Assembly: GCF_004104415.1 (NCBI RefSeq)
Contig: NZ_CP034669.1
From: Corallococcus coralloides
GTDB lineage: Bacteria; Myxococcota; Myxococcia; Myxococcales; Myxococcaceae
Direction: 5' to 3' (one strand)
Length of the DNA stretch: 64,000 nt
Positions 2,503 to 59,378 of the stretch are shown here, in pieces (within the stretch, counting starts at the first letter, position 1; every line of letters begins with the position of its first letter). Both the position numbers and the translations under genes were made by a program. The notes below the pieces were generated by a model. That model worked only from the letters and a program-made list of their open reading frames with translations, searched no databases and was not told where the DNA came from.

Positions 2503-3291
2503 TCAGCTCGCGAGGATGTGCAGGGACAGCTCGTTGGGCGTGAGGACTTCACAGCCGTCGCGGGTGACGAGCACGGTGTGCTCGAACTGGGCGGACAGGC
2601 TGCCGTCCGCGGTCACGACGGTCCACCCGTCCGGCATCATCCGGATGTCCGGCCGCCCCAGGTTCACCATGGGCTCGATGGTGATGACCATCCCCGACTT
2701 CAGCGTGATGCCCGTGCCCGCCCTGGCCACGTGCGGCACGTGCGGCTCCCCGTGCATCTGCCTGCCGATGCCGTGGCCTCCGAACTCCTCCACCACGCTG
2801 CACCCCTCCGCCTTCGCCAGCGCCATCACCGCCGCGCCAATGTCCCCCAGCCGCGCGCCGTGCCGCACCACGGACACGCCCACGTCCCGGCAGCGCCGCG
2901 CCACGTCCACGACGTGCTTCGCGTCCGCGGAGACTTCACCCATCATGAACGTGGCGGACGTGTCGCCGTGGAAGCCGTCCAGGTGCGTCGTCACGTCCAC
3001 GTTGACGATGTCGCCGGGCTTCAGCACCTCATCCGTGCGCGGGATGCCATGGCACACCACGTGGTTGCGGCTGGTGCACACCGTGGCCGGGAAGCCCTTG
3101 TAGCCCAGCTGGCTGGGCGTCCCACCCCGCCGCGCCGTGTCCTCGCGAACCCACGCGTCGATGTCCGCCGTCGTCACGCCCGGCTGGAGCCGGGAGCCCA
3201 CGTGCGCCAACGTGCCCGCCGCCGCGCGGCCCGCCAGCCGCAGCCGCTCCACTTCACTGCCCTTGAAGAGAGGAATGCCCATGCCGGGCAA
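2503..3291 (-). CDS. map: Type I methionine aminopeptidase
   Basis: 262 aa; metal ligands and motifs 'HGIPRTDEVLKPGDIVNVDV', 'DTSATFMMGE', 'FGGHGIGRQMHGEPHVPH', 'ITIEPMV' typical of MetAP1. Confidence 0.9.
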   Translation of the reverse strand: MPGMGIPLFKGSEVERLRLAGRAAAGTLAHVGSRLQPGVTTADIDAWVREDTARRGGTPSQLGYKGFPATVCTSRNHVVCHGIPRTDEVLKPGDIVNVDVTTHLDGFHGDTSATFMMGEVSADAKHVVDVARRCRDVGVSVVRHGARLGDIGAAVMALAKAEGCSVVEEFGGHGIGRQMHGEPHVPHVARAGTGITLKSGMVITIEPMVNLGRPDIRMMPDGWTVVTADGSLSAQFEHTVLVTRDGCEVLTPNELSLHILAS

Positions 3292-45378: not shown

Positions 45379-45457
45379 TCAGCACAGCAAGACGAGGCAG
45401 TGCGAACGCCGCCCGTTTCCGGTCCTCCGGAAGCGATGCGGCGTTTTCGTGCGGGTG
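45363..45457 (+). repeat. Direct repeat copy 1 (ABC-F 3' end 'gctcaagcgccggtag' + terminator hairpin 'aacgccgcccgtttccgg...ccggaagcgatgcggcgttttc')
   Basis: Seen directly; 30-nt core 'ggcagtgcgaacgccgcccgtttccggtcc' (45396-45425) identical to 54818-54847; flanks putative island. Confidence 0.8.
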
Positions 45458-45553
45458 TCAATCACCCTCACGGGGGATGCAACCGCGGCGAGGAGTGCGC
45501 CAGAACCTGGGGTGCCAGGTCGTCCCACCCATGACGACCCGGGGGGCACCTCC

Positions 45554-48500
45554 ATGACTCCGCACGACTCGGACCTGCTGAAAGAGCTTCAGCGGCAACG
45601 CACCCGGTTGCTGGATCTGAGCGCAACCAACCGACTCCTCCATTTCAAGCACACGGCCCGGACGTCGCTGCGCCTTGTGGATGAACTGCCAGGTGTTGTC
45701 TTCGAGCGCCTGAGCAACCACCGCGCGCTCACGTTCCTCCCTGTGATGCCGCCGGAGCATGCCTCCTCGGAAGAGGAGGACTTCGACCCTGCCGCCGCGA
45801 CGGTGGTGTTTTCGATGACGGCGGAGGAGGCCCCCAGCAAGGACGCCCGGCAGAAGCTGGTGCTTCAACAGGCGAAGAAGTTGGGCATCGATACCCGGTA
45901 TGATCTGCCCAAGGCGGTCCCTGCAGAGAGCGGCAGCAATCCGCGCAAGCACCAGGACCGCCACATCCAAACGTTGTACTTCCCGGAGGATCTGGAGAGC
46001 CACCTGCACCGCCTCCAGGGCCTCGCGCAAACGGCCATCCAGGAGACCGGGGCCAACCTGCTCCACTTCGTCTTCGGGTTCCTGCGCTGGTACGAGTCCG
46101 GTGACACCCGACAGGAGAAGCCTCGCAGCGCTCCGCTCGTGCTCATGCCGGTGAGCCTCAAGCGCGGCCAGGCGCACCCGGAGACGCGGGTCCACGCCTA
46201 CGAGGTGGACTACAACGAAGGCGAGTCCATCGAAACGAACCTCACGCTCCAGGAGAAGCTGCGGCAGGAGTTCGGCATCACGCTGCCGACCTTCTCCGTG
46301 GAGGATGGCTTGGAGGCGTACTTCGACAAGGTGACGGCGCTGCTCAAGGGCCTGCGCCCTGGCTGGAGCCTGGAGCGGCAGGTGACCCTGACGCTGCTGT
46401 CCTTCGGGCGGCTCCTGATGTGGCGGGACCTGGAGCCCACCCGCTGGCCCCAGAACAGTCCCATGCTGGCGAACCCGCTCGTCCAGACGCTGATGGGAGG
46501 ACAGGCGCATGCGAACGAACTTGGCGGAGGTGGCGGGGGGAGTCGGGAACGCCGGAGCGAGGTCTACGACCTGGACTCGCCAGCAGTGAATCCTCCGCCG
46601 CTCATCACGGACGCGGACAGCAGCCAGCACAGCGTGTTGGTGGACGTGCTCCGAGGCGAGAACCTGGTGGTCCAGGGGCCGCCTGGCACCGGGAAATCAC
46701 AGACCATCACCAACCTCATTGGCGCGGCGCTGGCGGCGGGCAAGACTGTGCTGTTCGTTACGCAGAAGCTGGCGGCGCTGGAGGTCGTCTCACGCCGCCT
46801 CCAGCAGGCGGGGCTCGGCGAGTTCTGCTTGGAGTTACACAGCCACAAGACCCAGAAACAGCAGTTCATGGAGGACCTGCGTCGACGACTCAACCTGGAT
46901 GCGAGCGCGAGCGCCCCTCGCCCGCTCACCGAACAGGTCTCGAGCGCGGCGGGCATCCTGCGCGCGCATACCGAGCGAATGCACAAGCCATTCGGGACGC
47001 TCGGCATGTCACCACACGACGTGTTCTGGAAGGTCAGTCGTGCTGAATCAGAGCTCGGGGAAGCGGTCGTGGAGCTGGAGGGCCTCCGCTTCGAGGGCGC
47101 TGAAGGCATGTCCACCTCTGCTCTGGCGGAGGTTCGCGACGCGGTTCGGAGCCTCGCGGCTCAGCTGGGGGATGTTCGCCGCGTCGCACCCATCCTTAGT
47201 GCTCACCCCTGGGCGGGTGTGACGAACGATGCGCTGACCGACAAGGACCGCCAGACACTCATTCAACGGATCGCCACTTGGGAAGAGTCCGCCCTGCGCT
47301 TGGAGAAAGCGCTGGCGGCCTTCACCGTCCGCACGGGCGTCACGCCCAGGTCGAGCGTGCTCGCGGCGGATGCGCTGGTCTCCAACATCCGGGTCTTGCC
47401 GCGACTCCCGGAGGGGGCTCCCGCGACGCTGGTCCCTGCCCTGCTCGATTCCACGCAGCGCGAGGGATTACGAGCCCTGCTTGATGCCATCGAAGCGGTC
47501 CAGGCGCGGTGGGCGGGGTTGGAAGCGGGCTGGCGCGCCCAGGAGGACCTGACCGCGCCCGCGCTGCGCGATGCGGAAGCCGTCCTCGACATTGCCCTGC
47601 GCCTGCTCTCGCCTGACACCACGCTCGTCACCCTGACGCGCGCGCATGAAGCGGTGGAAGCAGCGGCCCGAGCACTGGCGCAGGCTCGCCGGTTCGTGGC
47701 CGAAGTGGCCTCGTGCCTGGAGGTCGATGTCACGCTCTGGACGCCTCAGCAGCTCCAGACTTTCGCCCGCGTTGTCGAGGCGATGGCCGCCCTGGACGAC
47801 ACCACTTTGGAGTGGCGGGACCCGCGCTGGCTCGATCGCGAAGCCGAGGAGTCACTTCGGAAGGCCGACAGGACCTGCACGGAATTGAAAGAGCAGGCGC
47901 GGGCGCTCGCGGTGCGCTTCATGCCCGAGCTCGTTCCTCCCCTCGCGACGCTCAAGTCCCATGCCGTCGCGGTTGCGACCGCGCCATTCATCCCCTGGCT
48001 CTCGGGCGCATGGCGTGCCGCGCGGCGAGATTTCCAGGCCATGGCCCACGGCGTCCGTCCAACGAGGCCCGTATTGATCCAGGGCTACAACGACCTGCTG
48101 GCACATTACGCGGCACGGGAGCGGCTCCAAGAGGACGCGCCCCTGAAAGCGACCTTGGGCGCCCGCTTCCAGGGAGTCGAGACACGCTTCGACCGAATCC
48201 TTTCGTGGTTGGACGCATACCGGAACATCGATGCATTGCTCCTCACAATGGGCGATCGAGGTTTGGAGCTACGCCGCGCGGTGTTGGAGCGCTCCCCGAG
48301 CCATTGGAGAGAGGTCCTGGCGAAGGTCCGCGCGAAGAGTGATGAACTGCCCCAGGTCCGCGACGTGAGTACCTCCGTGCAAGAGGCCTCGACGCGCATG
48401 GGGCTGCCGCACGCGCCCTGGAACACCGAGCCTTTCGGAAAGGCCCAGGACAGTCTCGACGCCCTGCGGAAGCACCTGGGCGAGGTTCTAAACTGGGCAC

Positions 48501-50752
48501 GGAAGGGAGATGCCCCGCCGTCCCTGACCCTCTCCCAGCTCCAGGGACAGCTGCGCCGGGTGCACGAGGCGTGCGGCGCCACGGACGAACTGGAAGCGCA
48601 CGCTCCCGCAGCGGCCCTGCCAGGGGTGGCCTACCAGGGCCGGAAAACCTCCCTCGCGGGTCCCCGAAGCGTTCTCCGCCATGTTGATGACCTCCTCGCG
48701 GCGCCGCTGCCGGAAGGCTTGGCCGAGTGGCTGCTGCGAGAGGACACGCCACGAAAGCATGCGGACCTGCTCGCCGCCGCGGACGAGTTGGAGACAGCGC
48801 TCTCCGCCTACAGACAGTCCGCCACCCAAGCCTGGGAACTGGGAAGGATGGCCCCGGGCACCTGGGAGGATCACTCCGCCGAGGAACCGCTCCAATGGAC
48901 GGTCTTGCGCCTGCGCCAGGCCCGAAGCCAGTCCGCGACGCTTCCGGCCTGGTGCGCGTATCAACGGCAGCGGCGCGCCGTCGCGCGAGCGCGGAGCACC
49001 GCTGGGTTCTTGGAGCGCGTCGACACACGCCCCGGCCTGGAGCCAGAGCGGCTGGTCGCGGCCTTCGACGCTGTCTTCTTCCGCTCCCTGGCGGAAGCCA
49101 TCCTGCGAAACCAACCGGAGCTCGATCAATTCACGGGCGCCGTCCATGCCTCCCAGCGTGAGGAGTTCGCACGCCTGGACACGCATTGCATCGAAAAGCA
49201 GGGTCGATACCTGGCGCGTCAGCTCAGCCAGCGTCCGGCTCCTCCCGGCGTGTCCTCGGCGAAAGTGGCGGGTATGACGGAGACCCATCTTCTGAGGCAT
49301 GAGCTGGGTAAGAAGCAGCGGCACCTCCCCATCCGTGAGCTGGTGGCACGCGCTGGCAGTGCGCTTCAGACGCTGATGCCGTGTTTCATGATGGGTCCGC
49401 AGTCAGTTGCCCAGTACCTGCCCGCCGGACAGCTGACCTTCGACCTGGTGGTGATGGACGAGGCCAGCCAGATGCGTCCCGAGGATGCACTGGGAGCCAT
49501 TGCCCGAGGAAGGCAGTTGGTGGTGGTGGGCGACCCGGAGCAACTCCCTCCCACCAGCTTCTTCGCCCAGATGGAGCAGGAGGACACAGACTCCAACAAC
49601 GAGACGGGAGACGAGGTCCAGGGCCCGTCCTTCCTGGAGGATTCAGAGAGCATCCTCACGGCGGCGGCGGAGCGGTTCCCCATGCGCATGCTGCGCTGGC
49701 ATTACCGTTCCCGCCATCCCTCGCTCATCGCTTTCAGCAATCGCGAGTTCTACAACGGAGACCTCATCACCTTCCCCGCACCAGGTGAGCAACTGGACGG
49801 GCTGGGACTGCGCTTCCACAAGGTAGACGGAGGATTGTACGAGTCCAACCGAAACGTCCCCGAAGCTCGCGAGGTGCTGGCGAAGGTGAAAGAGCACGCG
49901 CGTACTCGCCCCGAGCAGAGCCTGTTGGTCGTCACGTTGAACTCGAAGCAGCGGGATCTCATCGACGACCTGGTGATTGCCGAGGAGAAGAACGACGTGA
50001 CCCTCCGGGCCTTCCTGGCGAAATGGGAAAAGTCACCCATGCCCTTCAACGTGAAGAACCTGGAGAACGTCCAGGGCGACGAGCGCGACGCCATCTTCGT
50101 GTCGGTCACGTTTGGTCGGAACCAGCAGAAGCAGTTCCGGATGAACTTCGGCCCCATCAACCAAGCGGACGGGTACCGTCGGCTGAACGTGCTCTTCACG
50201 CGGGCGAGATGCGCGCTGACGGTGTTCGCATCGTTCGACCCCTCGGAACTCACGCTCCAGGAAAGCAGCCCGCGTGGGATGCGCGTCCTGCAACGGTACC
50301 TGTCCGAAGCCAAAGGAGAGAAGGTGGCGCACGGCGTGGGGAGCGGCCGTCCACCGGATTCCGACTTCGAAATCGCTGTCGCGAAGGCGCTCGCGGCGCG
50401 GGGCTTCGAGGTGGTTCCGCAGGTAGGCGTCGCGGGCTACTTCATCGACATGGCCCTCCGGCATCCCCAGCAACCGGGCCGATACATTCTCGGTGTCGAG
50501 TGCGACGGCGAGCGGTATCACTCATCGCGCTCCGCACGGGACCGAGATCGGCTCCGGGACCAGGTGTTGAAGGGCCTGGGGTGGAAGCTCCACCGCATCT
50601 GGTCCACGGACTGGTTCCGCTCACCTTCCGAAGAGGTCGCCCGGATCGTCGCGCACGTCGAAAAGCTCCTTCGGGAGGAGGCAACTGAGTTGCCAGCCGT
50701 CGTGCGTGATGCGTCCCAGGTGGAGCACCAGATGCGAGCCGTCAGCGCCTGA
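45554..50752 (+). CDS. Large DUF4011/SF1 (Upf1-DNA2-like) helicase fused to C-terminal Vsr/DUF559(DUF3320)-type endonuclease; candidate defence protein
   Basis: Start MTPHDSDLLKEL at 45554; Walker A 'VVQGPPGTGKSQTITNLI', motif II 'FDLVVMDEASQM', 'VVVGDPEQLPPT', 'NVQGDERDAIFVS', 'NVLFTRAR'; C-terminus 'GYFIDMALRHPQQPGRYILGVECDGERYHSSRSARDRDRLRDQVLKGLGWKLHRIWSTDW' REase-like. Confidence 0.8.
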   Translation: MTPHDSDLLKELQRQRTRLLDLSATNRLLHFKHTARTSLRLVDELPGVVFERLSNHRALTFLPVMPPEHASSEEEDFDPAAATVVFSMTAEEAPSKDARQKLVLQQAKKLGIDTRYDLPKAVPAESGSNPRKHQDRHIQTLYFPEDLESHLHRLQGLAQTAIQETGANLLHFVFGFLRWYESGDTRQEKPRSAPLVLMPVSLKRGQAHPETRVHAYEVDYNEGESIETNLTLQEKLRQEFGITLPTFSVEDGLEAYFDKVTALLKGLRPGWSLERQVTLTLLSFGRLLMWRDLEPTRWPQNSPMLANPLVQTLMGGQAHANELGGGGGGSRERRSEVYDLDSPAVNPPPLITDADSSQHSVLVDVLRGENLVVQGPPGTGKSQTITNLIGAALAAGKTVLFVTQKLAALEVVSRRLQQAGLGEFCLELHSHKTQKQQFMEDLRRRLNLDASASAPRPLTEQVSSAAGILRAHTERMHKPFGTLGMSPHDVFWKVSRAESELGEAVVELEGLRFEGAEGMSTSALAEVRDAVRSLAAQLGDVRRVAPILSAHPWAGVTNDALTDKDRQTLIQRIATWEESALRLEKALAAFTVRTGVTPRSSVLAADALVSNIRVLPRLPEGAPATLVPALLDSTQREGLRALLDAIEAVQARWAGLEAGWRAQEDLTAPALRDAEAVLDIALRLLSPDTTLVTLTRAHEAVEAAARALAQARRFVAEVASCLEVDVTLWTPQQLQTFARVVEAMAALDDTTLEWRDPRWLDREAEESLRKADRTCTELKEQARALAVRFMPELVPPLATLKSHAVAVATAPFIPWLSGAWRAARRDFQAMAHGVRPTRPVLIQGYNDLLAHYAARERLQEDAPLKATLGARFQGVETRFDRILSWLDAYRNIDALLLTMGDRGLELRRAVLERSPSHWREVLAKVRAKSDELPQVRDVSTSVQEASTRMGLPHAPWNTEPFGKAQDSLDALRKHLGEVLNWARKGDAPPSLTLSQLQGQLRRVHEACGATDELEAHAPAAALPGVAYQGRKTSLAGPRSVLRHVDDLLAAPLPEGLAEWLLREDTPRKHADLLAAADELETALSAYRQSATQAWELGRMAPGTWEDHSAEEPLQWTVLRLRQARSQSATLPAWCAYQRQRRAVARARSTAGFLERVDTRPGLEPERLVAAFDAVFFRSLAEAILRNQPELDQFTGAVHASQREEFARLDTHCIEKQGRYLARQLSQRPAPPGVSSAKVAGMTETHLLRHELGKKQRHLPIRELVARAGSALQTLMPCFMMGPQSVAQYLPAGQLTFDLVVMDEASQMRPEDALGAIARGRQLVVVGDPEQLPPTSFFAQMEQEDTDSNNETGDEVQGPSFLEDSESILTAAAERFPMRMLRWHYRSRHPSLIAFSNREFYNGDLITFPAPGEQLDGLGLRFHKVDGGLYESNRNVPEAREVLAKVKEHARTRPEQSLLVVTLNSKQRDLIDDLVIAEEKNDVTLRAFLAKWEKSPMPFNVKNLENVQGDERDAIFVSVTFGRNQQKQFRMNFGPINQADGYRRLNVLFTRARCALTVFASFDPSELTLQESSPRGMRVLQRYLSEAKGEKVAHGVGSGRPPDSDFEIAVAKALAARGFEVVPQVGVAGYFIDMALRHPQQPGRYILGVECDGERYHSSRSARDRDRLRDQVLKGLGWKLHRIWSTDWFRSPSEEVARIVAHVEKLLREEATELPAVVRDASQVEHQMRAVSA

Positions 50753-50765
50753 ACAGGAGACATCC

Positions 50766-52331
50766 ATGACAACGATCATCGCCATTGGCCTGGGCGTGTT
50801 GGGCCTGTTGCTCCTTGGCTTGTGGTTGCGGACGCGAAGCCAGCTCAAGGCCGTCCAGGAACGATTCAAGCCCATCCTGGACCTGGAGGCCGAACGGCGC
50901 CGGGTCGCGGAGGAGTTGACGCAGGCCCGCACGGACGCGACCACGGCGATGGCCGCGGAACAAAAGCGGGTCCAGGACGAACTGGCCAAAGCCCGAAGCG
51001 AAGCGGACAGTGCGCTGGCGGCGGAGCGGAAGCGGGTGGAAACCGAGCTCGCTCGCGCCAAGGCAGACGTGGAGCAGGCCATCTCCGCGGAACAGGGCCG
51101 GGCCAAAGCGGAGTTGAACCGGCTCCGCGAAGAGACGAGCCGGACGACGCAAAGCGCGACGCGCGCCATGGAGGAAGCCGAAGCGCGTCGAAAGCAGGCG
51201 AACACCGAGCGGACCAGCCTGGAGTCAGGCATCGCCCGACTGAAGGCCGAGTTGAAGGCATTGGAGGAAGAGGAGGTCCTGCTCTCATTCGGATTCTACA
51301 AGCCGGTGTATGCGTTGGCGTCGGTCAAGGAGTACGAGGACCGGCTGGAGAGGATCCGCGACTCCCAGAAGCAGATGCTGAAGAACAAGGAAGCCGCCAC
51401 GTGCTCCATTCAGTGGGAGGTGAATGGAAGCAAGGCAGAAGGCAAGAAGCAGATTGACCGGACCTTGAAGCTGATGCTCCGGGCCTTCAACGGCGAGGCG
51501 GACGCGTGTGTGGCGAAGGTGTCCTACAAGAACGTAAAGGCCATGGAGACGCGCATCGAGAAGGCGGCCGCCGCCATCAATGGTCTCGCGGAGATCCAGC
51601 AGTGCGTCATCGCCAGGCGCTACGTCAAGCTCAAGGTCGAGGAGCTGATGCTCGCGTACGAGTATGAGGAGAAGGTGCAGCAGGAGCGTGACGAGCAGCG
51701 CCGGATCCGGGAGCAGATGCGCGAGGAGGAGGCCGCCCAACGCGAGTTGGAGAAGGCGAAGCTGGAGGCGGAGCGCGAAGCGAAGCGCGACGCAGAGGCC
51801 CTGGCCAAGGCAAAGGCGGACTACGAGCAGGCCAAGGGCTCAGAGCAGCAGAGGCTGATGGAGCGCATCGCGGAGCTGGAGCGCCGTGTGGCGGAAGACC
51901 TGGAGAAGCAGCGCGCCATCTCCCAGGCCCAGCTCACCCGGACGGGGCATGTCTACGTCATCTCCAACATCGGCTCCTTTGGAGACGGCGTGTTCAAGAT
52001 GGGAATGACCCGGCGGCTGGTACCCCAGGACCGCATCGACGAGCTGGGAGACGCGTCGGTGCCCTTCGAGTTCGACGTCCACGCCATCATCCGGACCTCG
52101 GATGCCCCGGCCTTGGAAAACGCATTGCACAAGGCTTTCGCGAATCGGCGCGTCAACCGCATCAACGAGCGCAAGGAGTTCTTCCGCGTCAGCCTGGATG
52201 AGATCGCGGAGGCGGTCCGCAAGCATCACGGTGAGTTTGAATTGACCCGGACTGCTGAAGCTGCGGAATACCGGAAGACGTTGGCACTCCAAGAGGGAGA
52301 ACAAGGTCGGCCCAGTGAGCAAGCCGCATGA
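50766..52331 (+). CDS. N-terminal TM + coiled-coil + DUF4041 + T5orf172 (GIY-YIG-like) domain protein; candidate defence protein
   Basis: Start MTTIIAIGLGVLGLLLLGLWL at 50766; 180-aa coiled coil; C-terminus 'GHVYVISNIGSFGDGVFKMGMTRRLVPQDRIDELGDASVPFEFDVHAIIRTSDAPALENALHKAFANRRVNRINERKEFFRVSLDEI' matches T5orf172/MUG113 consensus. Confidence 0.75.
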   Translation: MTTIIAIGLGVLGLLLLGLWLRTRSQLKAVQERFKPILDLEAERRRVAEELTQARTDATTAMAAEQKRVQDELAKARSEADSALAAERKRVETELARAKADVEQAISAEQGRAKAELNRLREETSRTTQSATRAMEEAEARRKQANTERTSLESGIARLKAELKALEEEEVLLSFGFYKPVYALASVKEYEDRLERIRDSQKQMLKNKEAATCSIQWEVNGSKAEGKKQIDRTLKLMLRAFNGEADACVAKVSYKNVKAMETRIEKAAAAINGLAEIQQCVIARRYVKLKVEELMLAYEYEEKVQQERDEQRRIREQMREEEAAQRELEKAKLEAEREAKRDAEALAKAKADYEQAKGSEQQRLMERIAELERRVAEDLEKQRAISQAQLTRTGHVYVISNIGSFGDGVFKMGMTRRLVPQDRIDELGDASVPFEFDVHAIIRTSDAPALENALHKAFANRRVNRINERKEFFRVSLDEIAEAVRKHHGEFELTRTAEAAEYRKTLALQEGEQGRPSEQAA

Positions 52332-52371: not shown

Positions 52372-54102
52372 ATGAACTCCGACCCGTTTTCGCATCCTGC
52401 GGATGCGCTCCCTAATGCTGTCATTGCCGCCTCTCAAACTCGGAAGATCGCGTTTTTGCTAGGCTCCGCCCTGTCGACACAAGAAAGAACTGGCGCCCCC
52501 CAGGTCCCCGGGGTGAACGCGATGCTCGATCTGATCCGCGAGCACGTTCCCGCCCAGTTTCAGGCGAAATTCGATACAGATCGGATTCACATCAAAGACA
52601 ATATCTACCAATGGGCCATGCATTTTCTGCAGGGCCGAGAGGGCAAGCAGGTCGCCGAGAAGGTTGTGAGAGAAGCTGTGCTCCGTGCACGGCTCGACCG
52701 ACAAAGGGATGGCGCCGCAACTGATGCCGAGCTTGATCGGGACTACGACGGATGGGCACTGCCTCCTGCGACTGAGCACCTTGGCAAACTACTGGTGGAG
52801 CAGGCTGACAAATTTGGTCCTGTCTTGACCACGAACTTCGACCCTCTCATCTCCGCGTCAATCAAGATGGCTGGCGGAGATTTTCACCGCACCCTCGTGG
52901 TCAACAACAGTCCTTTTGGGCACACGACTCTATCCTCGAACTCGACACACATTATTCATCTACACGGCTACTGGCACAAGTCACCCACGTTACACTCCGT
53001 CGCGCAGATTGCTCGTGATCGAGATCAAGTCGCCGCAGAGCTTGTTCAGATTCTTCAAAACCACACCCTCGTTGTCGTCGGATACGGCGGCTGGGATGAC
53101 GTCTTCACCAAGACGCTCTCGGCTATCAACGCCAACCCGCATAATGATGTCGACATCCTTTGGGCATTCTACGAAACCGAAGCAGATCACTTGCTTGAGG
53201 CGCGTTATCACCACCTCTTCAGCAAGGTTTCAAACTTAAGGGGCAACACGGGTCTTCGCTGCTACAAGGGCATCAACTGCCACAAGTTCTTTCCTGAACT
53301 TCGAAAACAGTTCGACGCATCCGTTGCCCCGCAGTCGCCCCCTCCCAGCACAGTCCGACAGCCACCGCCGCCATCCATCCCAATCGCCTCGACCACCAGA
53401 GCCCCTGGGCCGGCGACCTCGTCCCCCTCAAGTGCGGCGAAGCCACCCGAGCCAGTGCCCTCCGCGTCGGACCGTCCCGCCTCCCCTTCCGTTCCAAAGA
53501 CGGACGGCACGGGCAGCCCTCCGAAATCAGGCTCCAGGAGAATCCTGCCGTTTGCGGCTGCCGCGCTGATTGCCGGCGGCGTGGCAGCGGTCTGGCCATC
53601 CCCGAGCAAAGGCGTCAGCAATGACGTCTTTGTCGTTCAGACTCCGCGCAATCTGAGACCTGTCGAGCCGCAGCCCCCGACGACGACCGCTCCGGCCCCG
53701 GTACCCGCAAGCACGCTCAGAAGCGTTCGCCAACAACACCAGGTCGTGGCAGCTTCGGACGCCGAACGCGGAACTCGCGTCTCGCAGCTTCCCCGGGGTC
53801 GCTACGCATTTGTGCCGATGAGCGCTCTTCCCACCTACAGCGCGGACACCCCCATCTACGGCCCCATTCAGGAGGGAATCGAGATTCATCGCTCGCGCGC
53901 GGATGGAGCCTTGTATCTCGTAGGCTACGCGGATGCCCCGACCATCGCGGCCCTGGGATATCCGAACCCCGCGCCCATCGTCATTACCCCAACACCCAGC
54001 GGTAGAAGGACGCAGGTCGCGAGCATTTCTGTCTCTCGGATGACCACCGCTGAAGTACGCATGGACAAGGGCACCCGCGTGTTGGTTCTCCACCTCAACT
54101 AA
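52372..54102 (+). CDS. SIR2-like (SIR2_2/DHS-like NAD-binding) domain protein with Pro-rich linker, single TM helix and C-terminal periplasmic domain
   Basis: Ordered motifs 'KIAFLLGSALS' (Rossmann Gly loop), 'VLTTNFDPLI' (TTNYD-like), 'HIIHLHGYW' (catalytic His) with ThsA-like spacing; TM 'ILPFAAAALIAGGVAAVW'; N-terminal 900 nt ~50-53% GC vs ~69% background. Confidence 0.6.
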   Translation: MNSDPFSHPADALPNAVIAASQTRKIAFLLGSALSTQERTGAPQVPGVNAMLDLIREHVPAQFQAKFDTDRIHIKDNIYQWAMHFLQGREGKQVAEKVVREAVLRARLDRQRDGAATDAELDRDYDGWALPPATEHLGKLLVEQADKFGPVLTTNFDPLISASIKMAGGDFHRTLVVNNSPFGHTTLSSNSTHIIHLHGYWHKSPTLHSVAQIARDRDQVAAELVQILQNHTLVVVGYGGWDDVFTKTLSAINANPHNDVDILWAFYETEADHLLEARYHHLFSKVSNLRGNTGLRCYKGINCHKFFPELRKQFDASVAPQSPPPSTVRQPPPPSIPIASTTRAPGPATSSPSSAAKPPEPVPSASDRPASPSVPKTDGTGSPPKSGSRRILPFAAAALIAGGVAAVWPSPSKGVSNDVFVVQTPRNLRPVEPQPPTTTAPAPVPASTLRSVRQQHQVVAASDAERGTRVSQLPRGRYAFVPMSALPTYSADTPIYGPIQEGIEIHRSRADGALYLVGYADAPTIAALGYPNPAPIVITPTPSGRRTQVASISVSRMTTAEVRMDKGTRVLVLHLN

Positions 54103-54108
54103 CTAACA

Positions 54109-54783
54109 ATGAAACTCAAAAATCGTCCCCTTTTCCTTGGTTTGATGTCGCTTCTCTTGCTTGCTGGCTGTGGGCCCGAGGACCTCAACCCTGGTCCCGT
54201 CGACCCCATCGTGGAAGACCCGCCGCTCGAGCAGATCTGCACTGCGGGAAACTGCGCGGGCTGCTGTGACCCGACCACGAAAAAATGCGTCCAGGTTCGC
54301 ACCAACGATGCATGTGGCGCCAATGGCGTCAGCTGCACGAAATGCGCGACGGGCACCATCTGCCATCCATCACAGCAACAGTGCTACACACCTACCATCC
54401 GCGCGAAGATCCGGGCTGTGCGGGCTACAGTCTCCTCCCATGATCCCGCAGATGACAGTGACTGGGATGTCGATGGCTCACCCCCGGACGCCTTGATTCA
54501 GCTGACCTGCCCCAACGCCCAGCCTGCGGTTTCCGAGTCGGAAGAGGTTGAGAGCTTCACCCCCAACTGGACCACGGGGGCGTGTGATGTCCTCGGCACG
54601 GATCTGCTTTCCATGCCTGTCCAGTTCAACGTTCTCGATGTCGACGTTCTCGTCGATGACAATGTTGCGTCAGGCCAGTACCAGTTCACCCAAGCCGACG
54701 TCGATAATGGAGCCGTGGAATTGACGGGCTCCGGTGCTCTGACCTCCGTGGTTTTCCAGCTCACCACCTACTACGCCGACTAG
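54109..54783 (+). CDS. Cys-rich lipoprotein (paralog of 58758..59378)
   Basis: Lipobox 'LLLLAGCG'; 'CTAGNCAGCCDPTTKKCVQVRTNDACGANGVSCTKCATGTICHPSQQQCYTP...DWDVDGSPPDALIQLTCPNA' conserved with 58758 gene. Confidence 0.65.
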   Translation: MKLKNRPLFLGLMSLLLLAGCGPEDLNPGPVDPIVEDPPLEQICTAGNCAGCCDPTTKKCVQVRTNDACGANGVSCTKCATGTICHPSQQQCYTPTIRAKIRAVRATVSSHDPADDSDWDVDGSPPDALIQLTCPNAQPAVSESEEVESFTPNWTTGACDVLGTDLLSMPVQFNVLDVDVLVDDNVASGQYQFTQADVDNGAVELTGSGALTSVVFQLTTYYAD

Positions 54784-54789
54784 GTCGGA

Positions 54790-54881
54790 GCTCAAGAGCG
54801 CCGGTTCCGAGGCTCCAGGCAGTGCGAACGCCGCCCGTTTCCGGTCCATCCGGAAACGAGGCGGCGTTTTCATGCCCGGGT
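54790..54881 (+). repeat. Direct repeat copy 2 (includes 'gctcaagagcgccggt' remnant of ABC-F 3' end + terminator hairpin with U-tract)
   Basis: Seen directly; hairpin 'aacgccgcccgtttccgg-tccat-ccggaaacgaggcggcgtt' followed by TTTTC. Confidence 0.8.
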
Positions 54882-54934: not shown

Positions 54935-56365
54935 ATGTACCCGAGACGCCGTCTTCTGGCCCGTGGACAGTGGCTGTTCGATCTCAGACCGCATCGGCTC
55001 ATCGTCTTCCACGGAGGCGAAGGCGTGCGCCGGGAGGTCAGTGGAGACGTTCCGAATCCTCCGGCCGCACCCGTGGTGCTCGCCGCGCTGGATGAGGCAA
55101 CGAACGTCTGGGTGGGAAGCGGGAATCGGCGTGTCTTTACCGTGGGGGCCAGCGCGAGCGCTCCCGCCCAGGCCTTTCCGCGGGAGTGCTTCGATCTCAC
55201 CTCCGATGGGGACCGGCTCATCGGAACGGTGGTGGACGGCGCCCTCAAGCTGACCACCCTCTTCACGACCGATGGGTCCGGGCAGCAATGGGCGCCCCTG
55301 CCCCTGCCCAAGCCCGTGACCGCCACGCACGGATATGGGTACTCCGAGGGGCGCCCTCCCCGTCAGTCCCCTGATGGGGCGTTCCTTGATACGAGCCCCT
55401 TTGGCATCACCGTCGTGGAGAAGGGCCGGGGCCGCGTCTACGTGCTCCGCCCGGGGGCGGCTCAGCCGGAGGGAGCGCTCCAGATGGAACCGGGCCATGA
55501 GCAGGACATCTGGCGGGCCCAGGCCACTCCCCATGGTGTGCTCCTCCTGCTCGTCATCAACTACCGCCAGACAGCGCTCCTCCACTTCGCGCTCGACGGC
55601 ACCCTGCTCGGCTCCATCCCGGAACAGGATGGTGATGACGATGAGGAAGAGGAACAGACCTGGGGCGGTGCCGGTGTGTGTGTCCTCGACGCGGACCGGG
55701 CGCTCCTCTTCGTCCAGGACAAGGCCCTCCTCGTATCTCTGCCCGGGCTCCAGGTGATCGAAACGCTCGCGGGAGAATGGCCCTCCTTCGTGTCCGTGAC
55801 GCCCGCGGGACCTGACCGGTGGTGGGTGGGCGCCGAGGACAGTGACTCACTCTTCCTGCTCACAGCCGAACCCGGACACCCCTTGCACCTCCATTCCTCG
55901 AACCGTCCGGTGAGCCCGGGCGCGCCGCTCATGCACGTGGGCTACAAGACGCCCGCGATCCACTGGGCCGAGCACACCTCGGCGCCGCTGACCGTGTCCG
56001 CGCCCGTGACCGAGACCTGGCGGGCGGTGGTGCGCAATGACGGGACCGCGTGTGAGGTGGTGCGGATCCGCGTGTCCGGAGTGCTCGTCGGCGCTCGCGT
56101 GGTGGACGTGAGCGTGCGGTATCGCGGCCAGCCGCTCCCGATGGTAGAGGAGCACCGCGTGAACCTCGTGGGGAATACCTCCGGACTGGAGGGAGGGGCC
56201 ACCGCGGAGCTGGAGGTGACCTTCAAGCCCCGGAGCGAGGGCTCGGGACCGCTGACCATCACCGTCGAGCCGTGCTCCTGGCAGTGGCAGGGCAAGGACG
56301 AGCCTCGCGCCCTCGCGGTGACGGGCCATCCGGCATCCGCCCAATTCCTGCTCACGGTGGAGTAG
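54935..56365 (+). CDS. Hypothetical protein (476 aa)
   Basis: Protein-like composition, acidic linker 'DGDDDEEEEQ'; no recognised domain. Start uncertain. Confidence 0.45.
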   Translation: MYPRRRLLARGQWLFDLRPHRLIVFHGGEGVRREVSGDVPNPPAAPVVLAALDEATNVWVGSGNRRVFTVGASASAPAQAFPRECFDLTSDGDRLIGTVVDGALKLTTLFTTDGSGQQWAPLPLPKPVTATHGYGYSEGRPPRQSPDGAFLDTSPFGITVVEKGRGRVYVLRPGAAQPEGALQMEPGHEQDIWRAQATPHGVLLLLVINYRQTALLHFALDGTLLGSIPEQDGDDDEEEEQTWGGAGVCVLDADRALLFVQDKALLVSLPGLQVIETLAGEWPSFVSVTPAGPDRWWVGAEDSDSLFLLTAEPGHPLHLHSSNRPVSPGAPLMHVGYKTPAIHWAEHTSAPLTVSAPVTETWRAVVRNDGTACEVVRIRVSGVLVGARVVDVSVRYRGQPLPMVEEHRVNLVGNTSGLEGGATAELEVTFKPRSEGSGPLTITVEPCSWQWQGKDEPRALAVTGHPASAQFLLTVE

Positions 56366-56394: not shown

Positions 56395-57393
56395 TCATGA
56401 CGGGCGAGGGCTGGAGTCGTCGCTCGCGGTGACCTGCTGGACGAGCTGGGCCAACTGCCGCGAGGTCACCGGCTCCCCCTCCGAGAGGATGAAGTCCTCC
56501 AGGTCCTTCCGGAACGCGTGGCAGTCCGGGTAGCGCTGCTCCCGCTCCTTCGCGAGCGCCCGGGCGAGGATGGCTCGAAGGGCATCGGGCAGGTCTTGCC
56601 GGTGCTGCTCGGCGGGCACGAGGGGCTCGAACAAGGCGGCCTGAAACAAGCCCCCGTCGGGCGTGGAATCAAAGGGCCTGCGCGTGGTGAGCACCCCGTA
56701 GAGCGCCACACCGAGCGCGTATACGTCCACCCTCCGATCCACCGGCACGCCCCTGGCCTCCTCGGTCGCCATGTACCTGTACTTGCTCAGGTTGGGGATG
56801 AGGTATCGGGGCGCCCATCGATCCCGGAAATCGTCGATGCCGAAGCCCACCACCTGGGTCATCCCCTGGCGCGACAGGAGGATGTTGTACGGCCTGATGT
56901 GTCGGTGGATGAGCCTCAACGGCTCGTGCGTCTTTGGGTCGGTGAGGTCGTGGGCATAGGCGAGCCCCTCGCAGGCTTGCGAGATGATGCGCGCGCACAG
57001 GGTCGCCGGCAGGGGCATCCGCTGGGCCGCCACGTGCTCGATCACCCTGCGCAGGCTGGGCCCGTCAATGTGCTCCCTGGCGAGGAAGTACGTGCCGTCC
57101 GCCTCACCCACGTCGAAGACCTTCACGAGGTGCGGGTGCGTGAGCCGGGCGGCGTTCCTCGCCGTGTCGAGGAAGATCTCCGGGAAATCCACCTGCTCGG
57201 CCATGTCCGAGCGGAGGCACTGGAGCACCAGCGTCTTCTCGGTGCCCTGCGGGCCGGCGGCGCTGGCCAGATAGTCCTCGATGATGCCTTCAGCGAGCAG
57301 GCGGATGCGCTGGTATTTGCCAACTTGGGATGTCACGGGGCGTATGAATAGCAGACCATGACCCGGTATCGCTTCCTGGGGCTTGCACCGCAC
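56395..57393 (-). CDS. Ser/Thr kinase-fold pseudokinase
   Basis: Kinase subdomains recognisable but catalytic residues replaced: 'TLVLQCL' (VAIK Lys->Gln), 'IHRHIRPYNILL' (HRD Asp->His), 'VVGFGI' (DFG->GFG); retains 'YMATEEA' (APE-like) and 'DVYALGVALYGVLT'. Confidence 0.65.
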   Translation of the reverse strand: MRCKPQEAIPGHGLLFIRPVTSQVGKYQRIRLLAEGIIEDYLASAAGPQGTEKTLVLQCLRSDMAEQVDFPEIFLDTARNAARLTHPHLVKVFDVGEADGTYFLAREHIDGPSLRRVIEHVAAQRMPLPATLCARIISQACEGLAYAHDLTDPKTHEPLRLIHRHIRPYNILLSRQGMTQVVGFGIDDFRDRWAPRYLIPNLSKYRYMATEEARGVPVDRRVDVYALGVALYGVLTTRRPFDSTPDGGLFQAALFEPLVPAEQHRQDLPDALRAILARALAKEREQRYPDCHAFRKDLEDFILSEGEPVTSRQLAQLVQQVTASDDSSPRPS

Positions 57394-58757: not shown

Positions 58758-59378
58758 ATGAAAGTCCTTGGCCGTTGGATGTTCGTCCTGCTGTGCGCGC
58801 TGTGGCTCCCCGCCTGCGGTCCCTACGACTGCAACCCGGAGAACTGCGCGGACGGCTGCTGCTCCGCGCTCAATGAGTGCATCCGCTACCGGAGCGACTC
58901 GGAATGCGGCCCCAATGGCGGCACCTGTGAAGCCTGCGCGGAAGGCAGCGTCTGCCGGCTCGACCAGCGCGTTTGCTACACGGGCGTGATGCGCACCTAC
59001 GTGCAGCCCCGGCGCGCCGTCATCGCGGACGTCGCCCCGGATACGGGCGAGGACTGGGACTCCGATGGCTCCCCGCCGGACGTCGTCGTGGAGATGGAGT
59101 GCCCCTCCGCTCCCGAGCGCTCCCGTACCCCCGAGGACGAGAGCTGGGACCCCGAATGGCGCTCCGGCGGCTGCCAGGTCATCACGTCCAACCTGCTGCG
59201 CTACCCGCTCGAAATCTCCATCTTCGACAACGACGACTTCACCTTCGATGACGGGTTCGGCGGCCTCTCCTACCAGGTCACCCGCGCGGACCTGAGCCTG
59301 GGCCGCATCGAGCTGTCCATCCCGCCCATCGTGAAGACGCTCGTCTTCGACCTGAGCCACAACTACGCGCCGCAATGA
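58758..59378 (+). CDS. Cys-rich lipoprotein (paralog of 54109..54783)
   Basis: Lipobox 'LWLPACG'; 'CNPENCADGCCSALNECIRYRSDSECGPNGGTCEACAEGSVCRLDQRVCYTG...DWDSDGSPPDVVVEMECPSA' same Cys spacing as 54109 gene. Confidence 0.65.
   Translation: MKVLGRWMFVLLCALWLPACGPYDCNPENCADGCCSALNECIRYRSDSECGPNGGTCEACAEGSVCRLDQRVCYTGVMRTYVQPRRAVIADVAPDTGEDWDSDGSPPDVVVEMECPSAPERSRTPEDESWDPEWRSGGCQVITSNLLRYPLEISIFDNDDFTFDDGFGGLSYQVTRADLSLGRIELSIPPIVKTLVFDLSHNYAPQ

Follow-up and report, generated by a model that had tools for sequence, protein, structure and literature searches.

We analysed a stretch of 64,000 nucleotides from Corallococcus coralloides (contig NZ_CP034669.1; hereafter the window), in which one gene encodes a SIR2 domain joined through a linker and a predicted transmembrane (TM) segment to a conserved C-terminal domain (CTD), and the next gene encodes an exported, probably lipid-anchored protein. 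These two genes very probably form one module. At a probability of about 0.55, we interpret the pair as an undescribed Myxococcota defence module, in which a signal sensed outside the cytoplasm would set off a nucleotide-depleting effector within it. The initial annotation of the SIR2 gene had pointed to an unusual trigger topology, and this idea, backed by comparative genomics, was strengthened because the CTD sits on three predicted effector types and always adjoins the gene of an exported, cysteine-rich protein.

Gene pairing and exchange of effectors

A uniform hidden Markov model (HMM) scan of the fetched loci placed the lipoprotein gene directly downstream of the TM-CTD gene in 9/9 contigs with a TM-CTD gene (the window, L001, L004, L006, L002, L003, L021, L023 and L024). 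The two genes were always on the same strand, spaced by 0–95 nt or overlapping, and the paired loci reached identities down to about 26–35% in the CTD alignment. In the window, the lipoprotein open reading frame (ORF) begins 6 nt past the stop of the SIR2 gene. SIR2-type pairs were found in C. coralloides KYC2213 (L001/L005), C. interemptor (L004) and C. praedator (L006), as well as in the metagenomic contigs L002 and L003, whose SIR2 proteins are 35% identical to the window protein. On the non-SIR2 contigs, the lipoprotein gene lay at +95 nt (L021/L022), overlapped the stop (L023) or abutted it (L024).

An exhaustive phmmer search of 1.84 billion representative proteins with aa 446–576 as the query recovered 22 proteins with the CTD; a word-index homology search with aa 437–576 gave no matches, though the full-length homologues carry the domain. 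Behind a linker and a hydrophobic span, the CTD was present on further SIR2 proteins (P0128, P0132, P0136) and on proteins of the PNP_UDP_1 phosphorylase superfamily (P0137, P0140, P0143), one of which (P0143) additionally has an EAD5 adaptor domain. The N-terminal regions of the latter three were matched in PADLOC by the "Effector, PN-superfamily"/PDC-M60C model. In P0134, the CTD accompanies a FAD/NAD-Rossmann N-terminal region that PADLOC assigned to Lamassu LmuA (E = 9e-91, profile positions 3–415 of 827). Judged from these comparisons, the CTD is a mobile module carried by three putative defence effector types. SIR2, PNPase and TIR domains have been described as interchangeable NAD+/nucleotide-targeting effectors (PMC8195603), and PNP-family effectors are outlined as ATP nucleosidases in defence (10.1101/2023.01.24.525353).

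A polymorphic-toxin/immunity arrangement was considered and rejected, as the variable domain is N-terminal and carries no export signal. The lipoprotein was likewise rejected as an immunity protein: it does not vary as the effector is exchanged, contrary to what toxin–immunity covariation would give.

The SIR2 domain

The product of 576 amino acids (aa) was 100% identical to a C. coralloides protein (P0001) in a homology search; its orthologues are 575–580 aa long, and those in Corallococcus are 47–84% identical within the genus. The NCBI model of P0001 has 526 aa with its start at Met51, and would lose the conserved first strand and the Gly-loop. The 576-aa reading is the correct one, because F28, L29, G31 and L34 are invariant and the AlphaFold2 (AF2) confidence score (predicted local distance difference test, pLDDT) of this part is 91–93.

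Three SIR2 motifs, which the initial annotation had read in this order, were borne out at aa 28–35 (FLLGSALS), 153–157 (TTNFD) and 196–199 (HLHG), and vary little or not at all among 12 homologues. The invariant or near-invariant residues in these 12 proteins are F28, L29, G31, L34, T153–P158, H198 and G199; G31, N155 and H198 are invariant and S32 is nearly so. The Pfam family SIR2_2 (PF13289) matched aa 151–270 with 40.9 bits against a cut-off of 24.5 (E = 2.8e-10), which confirmed the SIR2 assignment, and was present in all close homologues. The AF2 model, built from the 12-sequence alignment, showed a Rossmann-like fold with pLDDT mostly 75–93 over aa 10–318. Among the matches listed by Foldseek in the PDB were SPARSA SIR2-APAZ, SIR2-HerA, DSR2, ThsA, AVAST5 and KomC, and these defence SIR2 proteins had E values of 3e-10 to 5e-7 and a probability of 1.00. 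A profile alignment paired TTN155FD with ITTNYD and LH198G with VHG of DSR2, and the catalytic DSR2 mutant H171A is named in the PDB titles of fold matches. On the strength of the HMM score above threshold, the conserved Asn155 and His198 and the fold matches to defence NADases, aa 1–318 are almost certainly a defence-type SIR2 domain, which is likely to be a NAD+-cleaving enzyme.

At the sequence level, the best PDB relative in a profile search was human FAM118B. The nearest relatives by sequence (35–40% identity) are SIR2 domains fused to NB-ARC, NACHT or nSTAND5 NTPases, and the PADLOC matches of the window protein were limited to the SIR2 core, with the pAgo and Aga models covering aa 137–286.

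A second SIR2-TM-X architecture from the same SIR2 subfamily (P0059, P0061 and P0091; L035 1288–2892) has a strong TM segment, a C-terminal domain of ~130 aa distinct from the CTD and an unannotated 331-aa gene upstream; membrane tethering of SIR2 effectors, combined with extracytoplasmic domains, would thus seem to be more widespread. One homologue from a "Hymenobacter sp." metagenome-assembled genome (P0010) tracks the Corallococcus protein P0008 in the alignment and loses the CTD past a frameshift-like divergence, and its contig is probably a mis-binned myxobacterial sequence.

Linker, hydrophobic span and C-terminal domain

The order of a Pro/Ser-rich linker, one predicted TM helix and a C-terminal domain, as initially annotated, was recovered with the linker at aa ~319–388 and the span at 391–409. 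The linker differs in length and sequence among homologues and was left disordered by AF2. The span is the top hydrophobic 19-mer of the protein (Kyte–Doolittle score, KD, 1.87) and lies in the same place in all CTD-bearing homologues, where its sequence has diverged and KD reaches up to 2.56. The TM call is based on hydropathy, on positional conservation in divergent homologues and on context. The C-terminal domain had been taken as one unit of ~160 aa; its extent stood, with ~165 residues past the span, and these split into a second linker (413–448) and a conserved block of ~125 aa (449–576), the CTD. The alignment of the CTD showed the motif LR..H.V ... LP.G.YGF ... E.H[RK] ... LVGY ... vsIP..R with invariant R, V, E, H and G residues, and neither Pfam nor PDB sequences contained a match.

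Three indirect lines of evidence favour an orientation with the N terminus inside and the C terminus outside. The K+R counts flanking the span, taken over 14 proteins, are 42 on the N-terminal side and 25 on the C-terminal side; P0135 has three tandem CTDs behind a classical Sec signal peptide; and the partner protein is exported and has 12 invariant Cys. P0127 and P0144 are N-terminally anchored CTD proteins. The absence of an N-terminal signal peptide, NAD+ as the substrate and the matching charge bias would place the SIR2 domain in the cytoplasm; the CTD would then be periplasmic, where it can meet the lipoprotein. From these sequence features, an extracytoplasmic CTD is the most likely arrangement.

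The partner lipoprotein

The initial annotation overlooked the lipoprotein gene and the defence-island context formed by the upstream genes Hhe and PD-Lambda-1. The lipobox of the window protein is canonical (L-L-A-G-C21). In the Corallococcus orthologues, it reads L-[AP]-[GA]-C or V-T-G-C, and the Cys-Gly pair is invariant in 10 orthologues; the Pfam family LPAM_1 matched at E = 0.27 only. Among the orthologues, 12 Cys residues and a cluster of Asp do not vary, and the acidic cluster comprises D112, D115, W119, D120, D122, S124, P126 and D127, followed by D177, D179, D183 and D184. No PDB sequence matched the lipoprotein. When the orthologue alignment was widened with distant metagenome relatives, which themselves carry WDADGSxPDPYV and TP.WN, hhalign against C2 domains (approximate C2 sequences) gave a probability of 82% (E = 1e-5) with three C2 signature motifs in register. 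One orthologue cluster is named "C2 domain-containing" in UniRef. We therefore assign the C-terminal domain of the lipoprotein as C2-like with moderate confidence.

The window also contains a paralogue at 58758–59378 (+), which has the same Cys-rich and C2-like layout, 35% identity to the cassette lipoprotein, a host-like GC content at third codon positions (GC3) of 0.90 and no adjacent CTD gene. This gene lies between an HxlR regulator and a cytochrome-P460-like gene, and its product matched the Pfam C2 family PF00168 at E = 0.0015 (19.1 bits, cut-off 22). Further paralogues were seen in L001 (16464–17084) and L006 (8797–9525). In a rough neighbour-joining tree built without bootstrap, the cassette-linked lipoproteins group together, and the free Corallococcus paralogues are sister to the Corallococcus cassette copies. 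Evidently, some members of the family are "free" and others are dedicated to the cassette.

A Cys-rich motif of the lipoprotein's N-terminal module, C-x4-C-x-G-C-C ... A-C-G-x2-G-x2-C-x2-C, was found again, often as tandem copies, across many otherwise unrelated exported proteins of Myxococcota (seen at loci L007–L012 and L014–L020), and looks like a lineage-specific disulfide-rich repeat that has no Pfam model. A search of viral contigs with the lipoprotein profile found no relatives, and tblastn of the CTD and the lipoprotein against plasmids gave no matches.

Genomic context

The coordinates of the cassette and its neighbours are given in Table 1. Hhe and PD-Lambda-1, each a known anti-phage system consisting of one gene, sit immediately upstream of the SIR2-TM-CTD gene, and the order Hhe, PD-Lambda-1, SIR2 and lipoprotein is kept in three other Corallococcus genomes. 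Hhe matched NCBIfam Hhe_antiphage at E = 0 with 1424.6 bits, which is under the curated cut-off of 2000, and its best PADLOC model was PDC-S37, with Hhe second. From the gene calls of orthologues, the true starts are probably near 45554 for Hhe (MTPHDS) and 50766 for PD-Lambda-1 (MTTIIAIG). Both genes were rejected as functional partners, as they are syntenic in Corallococcus only and absent from the five non-Corallococcus loci, where the neighbours are HSDR_N (L002, L003), PemK, Ser/Thr kinases or Imm52. The SIR2–lipoprotein pair is therefore an independent unit within a defence island.

Table 1 Features of the SIR2-TM-CTD/lipoprotein cassette and its upstream neighbours (window coordinates).
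Feature	Position	Strand	Details and basis
Hhe	ORF 45449-50752	+	DUF4011 helicase with MTES_1575 nuclease; NCBIfam Hhe_antiphage, PADLOC
PD-Lambda-1	ORF 50706-52331	+	DUF4041/SNIPE and T5orf172; PADLOC E=1e-152
SIR2-linker-TM-CTD gene	52372..54102	+	576 aa, coordinates include stop; ORF call
SIR2 (NADase-type) domain	52372..53325	+	aa 1-318; Pfam, AF2, Foldseek, profile alignment
Putative catalytic Asn155	52834-52836	+	Conservation, alignment to DSR2
Putative catalytic His198	52963-52965	+	Conservation, alignment to DSR2
Pro/Ser/Thr/Ala-rich low-complexity linker	53326..53535	+	aa 319-388; GC at second codon positions 0.81, pLDDT <40
Predicted single TM segment	53542..53598	+	aa 391-409 (ILPFAAAALIAGGVAAVWP), SRR in front; hydropathy, position
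CTD	53716..54099	+	aa 449-576, ~125 aa; phmmer, alignments
Exported lipoprotein gene	54109..54783	+	224 aa; ORF call, orthologues
Signal peptide and lipobox LLAG-C21	54109-54171	+	Lipoprotein N terminus
Cys-rich module (aa 44-92) and C2-like domain (aa ~96-224)	within 54109..54783	+	
Terminator-like GC-rich hairpin	54817..54875	+	RNA fold; UUUUC follows; right copy of direct repeat

A GC-rich hairpin 42 nt past the lipoprotein stop had a predicted folding energy of -46.9 kcal/mol (z = -7.9). Given this strong hairpin and the UUUUC behind it, the SIR2 and lipoprotein genes appear to end a transcription unit; a scan for consensus promoters and terminators gave nothing useful. The hairpin belongs to a ~57-nt direct repeat (45395–45452 and 54817–54875) found at both borders of the block from Hhe to the lipoprotein gene, with a 31-nt perfect core and about 93% identity overall. 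Only these two copies occur in the window (chance expectation 0.01), and L001 has the left copy only (3030–3085). The repeat may be an insertion or recombination footprint. Past the cassette lie a 476-aa ORF (54935–56365, +), which was matched by nothing in Pfam, NCBIfam or PADLOC, and, convergent to it, a gene for a Ser/Thr protein kinase (56395–57393, -). In C. coralloides KYC2213 (L001), pentapeptide-repeat and beta-lactamase genes replace this segment; the island is thus variable on its right side.

In L002 (3902–5134) and L003 (282–1517), a gene for a conserved HSDR_N protein of ~410 aa (type I restriction R-subunit N-terminal, nuclease-like) lies ~100 nt upstream of the SIR2-TM-CTD gene on the same strand. 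For this sub-type it may be a third component or else a separate defence gene; as a core third component of the module it was rejected, since it was found only in these two loci.

A proposed envelope-sensing mechanism

The product of the first gene would be a single-pass inner-membrane protein with a cytoplasmic SIR2 effector, a Pro-rich stalk, a TM segment and a periplasmic CTD, and that of the second an exported protein, probably anchored by a lipid, in which a disulfide-rich module is followed by a C2-like domain of the Ca2+/lipid-binding type. The CTD and the lipoprotein might act jointly as an extracytoplasmic sensor. An envelope cue, such as phage adsorption or injection or envelope damage, would alter the interaction between the two, and the altered contact would lead to clustering of the single-pass proteins. 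Single-pass proteins usually signal through ligand-controlled clustering. Clustering could allow the SIR2 domains to assemble into the oligomers in which defence SIR2 enzymes are active, and the depletion of NAD+ would then arrest or kill the cell (abortive infection). In defence SIR2 enzymes, oligomerisation activates the enzyme and NAD+ depletion follows, as illustrated by filament and tetramer structures among the Foldseek matches. The lipoprotein might serve either as an activating co-sensor or as a restraining "guard", by analogy with RcsF–IgaA.

We favour a role in defence because the cassette follows Hhe and PD-Lambda-1, other loci of the module adjoin HSDR_N, PemK or Imm52 genes, its GC3 is atypical and its orthologues are so divergent within the genus. 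The island context favours phage as the trigger, and another surface conflict of the social myxobacteria is also possible. More tentatively, and with rather less confidence than doubt, the pair could represent a hitherto unrecognised family of envelope-spanning immune receptors of Myxococcota, in which an outer-membrane C2-like lipoprotein and a periplasmic CTD detect phage or some other insult to the envelope, cluster and activate a swappable effector (a SIR2 NADase, a PNP-type ATP nucleosidase or an LmuA-type domain).

Several observations weigh against this mechanism. AF2 did not model the span at 391–409 as a helix (pLDDT about 26–31, thus <35), and with its KD of 1.87 the window span is only moderately hydrophobic and rich in Ala and Gly. 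The CTD, predicted as beta-rich, reached pLDDT of just 50–68, and the lipoprotein, modelled from a 5-sequence alignment, 36.7; with such low values for the lipoprotein, the CTD and the span, the models lend no structural support to the sensor parts or their interaction. The small CTD-only proteins P0139, P0141, P0142 and P0146 have neither a TM segment nor a signal peptide, so the CTD need not be extracytoplasmic; they are the main evidence against that location, and their contigs are short, which leaves the gene context uninformative. The CTD family is small (22 of 1.84 billion representatives) and seems to be confined to Myxococcota. Synteny within Corallococcus may reflect vertical inheritance, in which case the pairing represents ~5 independent lineages rather than nine; these ~5 lineages cover the three effector types. 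On the lipoprotein side, the residues before the invariant Cys-Gly form a non-canonical lipobox in L002, L003, L023 and L024, and more distant C2-like lipoproteins are not next to CTD genes. The C2 assignment of the cassette lipoprotein is itself weak: no Pfam family, including C2, matched at E <= 5, and hhalign gave a probability of 0.7% when the alignment of 10 orthologues was compared with five canonical C2 domains (approximate C2 sequences).

Base composition and alternative explanations

A low GC content in the N-terminal part of the SIR2 gene had led the initial annotation to propose a recent fusion or acquisition of the SIR2 domain. The raw GC step stood, with 0.55 in codons 1–315 and 0.66 in codons 316–576 in a window of ~69.5% GC. 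The idea that the N-terminal domain alone is foreign did not: GC3 was 0.63 in the N-terminal and 0.71 in the C-terminal part (Fisher p = 0.05; CTD alone 0.70, p = 0.15), while GC at second codon positions was 0.39 in the N-terminal and 0.63 in the C-terminal part, with a value of 0.81 for the linker. Because the step comes mainly from second codon positions (Pro/Ala/Ser/Thr linker), it mostly reflects amino-acid composition, and the homologous loci L001, L006, L002 and L003 show the same pattern. Both halves are well under the GC3 of ordinary window genes (0.92–0.98), as are the whole SIR2 gene (0.66) and the lipoprotein gene (0.70), and the upstream defence genes are intermediate (0.81 and 0.84). 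It is the entire two-gene cassette, not one domain, that is compositionally atypical. The fusion is old, since homologues at only 35% identity share the SIR2-TM-CTD architecture. Fusion of a low-GC foreign SIR2 to a resident high-GC membrane protein, forming a recent chimera, would account for the raw step, and is refuted by the codon-position analysis and the conserved architecture, so that we give it next to no credence. Raw GC steps in genes with low-complexity linkers are not to be taken as fusion scars.

A different purpose for the same machine, as a cell–cell conflict, kin-discrimination or programmed-cell-death device of the social Myxococcota triggered not by phage but by a cue from outside the cell or at the outer membrane (for instance outer-membrane-exchange material, a competitor toxin or a developmental signal), is rather unlikely and yet fits several features. 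The family is confined to Myxococcota-like contigs, and its neighbours include Imm52 (polymorphic-toxin immunity), DUF2380 and Gmx_para_CXXCG (both Myxococcus-specific), PemK and Ser/Thr kinases. The EAD5 domain of P0143 is an adaptor of the conflict systems of "multicellular bacteria" (PMC8195603), and the same genomes carry related C2-like lipoproteins as ordinary chromosomal genes. Against such a purpose, the Corallococcus copy directly follows two validated anti-phage systems, the three effector types are all best known from anti-phage systems, and the loci contain no pointer to a delivery apparatus. The location of sensing was weighed separately. If the span were a mere anchor or not inserted at all, the CTD could be a cytoplasmic ligand sensor like that of DSR2, and the lipoprotein accessory or unrelated. 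The CTD-only proteins, the AF2 model and the hydrophobicity of the window span noted above agree with such intracellular sensing, as does the fact that the closest SIR2 relatives are soluble STAND-fused sensors. We nevertheless consider it distinctly unlikely, given that the span keeps its position in every effector–CTD fusion with KD up to 2.56, that the charge bias places the N terminus inside, that P0135 is a CTD-repeat protein with a Sec signal, and that the 9/9 adjacency to the gene of an exported Cys-rich protein is difficult to account for unless the CTD meets this protein. A housekeeping membrane sirtuin that deacylates envelope or metabolic proteins, with no role in conflict, is very improbable. 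SIR2 is a deacylase superfamily, and the Asn and His are common to deacetylases and NADases; the window protein, however, is a member of SIR2_2 (PF13289) and not of the canonical sirtuin family, its listed structural neighbours are defence NADases, PNP or LmuA-type effectors substitute for SIR2 on the same chassis, and its GC3 is atypical, its divergence rapid and its distribution patchy. Defence by envelope sensing remains our preferred reading.

Relation to known systems

The cassette shares the SIR2_2-type Rossmann-like domain and the Asn/His pair with the defence SIR2 NADases DSR2, ThsA, SIR2-HerA, SPARSA and AVAST5; it differs from them in that its sensor side would lie across the membrane and include a separate exported protein. 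None of these systems was matched as a whole. For Thoeris, no SLOG, Macro or TIR domains were found in the protein or its neighbours, and PADLOC gave no Ths match. For DSR1/DSR2, the window protein had no PADLOC Dsr match; those proteins have ~1000 aa with a large C-terminal helical-repeat sensor, whereas the window protein has 576 aa and a linker-TM-CTD arrangement. SIR2-HerA and SPARSA have an adjacent HerA, or APAZ and pAgo, none of which is present here; the neighbours in the window are Hhe, PD-Lambda-1 and the lipoprotein gene. The window protein contains no NTPase domain of the kind found in SIR2-STAND (Avs-like/AVAST5-type) systems.

There is a conceptual likeness to Zorya (ZorAB) and Kiwa (KwaAB), which couple envelope detection to a cytoplasmic response and share no homology with the cassette. 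Zorya is outlined as a system of this kind (10.1101/2023.12.18.572097, PMC11890865). It consists of a MotAB-like 5:2 motor and nucleases, and Kiwa has a multi-pass sensor, whereas the cassette combines a predicted single-pass protein, a novel, putatively periplasmic domain, a C2-like lipoprotein and swappable nucleotide-depleting effectors fused in cis. The Rcs system follows a matching logic: as outlined for it, the exported lipoprotein RcsF reports the state of the envelope to the periplasmic domain of inner-membrane IgaA, with a cytoplasmic output (PMC11709261). This is an analogy only, with no sequence relationship, and the Rcs output is a phosphorelay where the cassette has a fused toxic effector.

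CBASS, Lamassu LmuA and EAD-linked STAND systems use the same interchangeable effectors (SIR2, PNP/PN-superfamily and LmuA-type), and EAD5 occurs in one CTD homologue. In contrast to those systems, the cassette has no cyclase, LmuB/SMC partner or STAND NTPase, and its constant part is the TM-CTD and the lipoprotein. The lipoprotein domain is collinear with C2 domains (PF00168; synaptotagmin, PKC, cPLA2) in three motifs, which pair D.DGS.PD..V with D..G.SDPYV, S.TP.W with TLNP.W, and V.D.D...DD.I with V.D.D....D.IG. It differs from canonical C2 domains in scoring under the Pfam threshold, in two conserved Cys, and in being bacterial, exported and preceded by a Cys-rich module.

Implications

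Neither the CTD nor the lipoprotein nor their pairing is covered by a model in PADLOC v2, Pfam, NCBIfam or the PDB, and full-text literature searches found no description of the SIR2-TM-CTD plus lipoprotein architecture. The SIR2 effector is of a known kind, and the sensor side and the topology appear to be new. To our knowledge, the characterised abortive-infection effectors of the SIR2, TIR and PNP types respond to cytoplasmic triggers, namely phage proteins, nucleic acids or second messengers. In the cassette, interchangeable effectors in the cytoplasm would be driven from outside by a constant module, and the chance that this embodies a genuinely new sensing principle is substantial. If so, it would give bacteria a new way to sense attack at the envelope and would extend the defence repertoire by two domain families not described before. 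Its logic would parallel that of eukaryotic single-pass immune receptors: the Myxococcota would possess a bacterial "receptor with a death domain", acting at or before genome entry.

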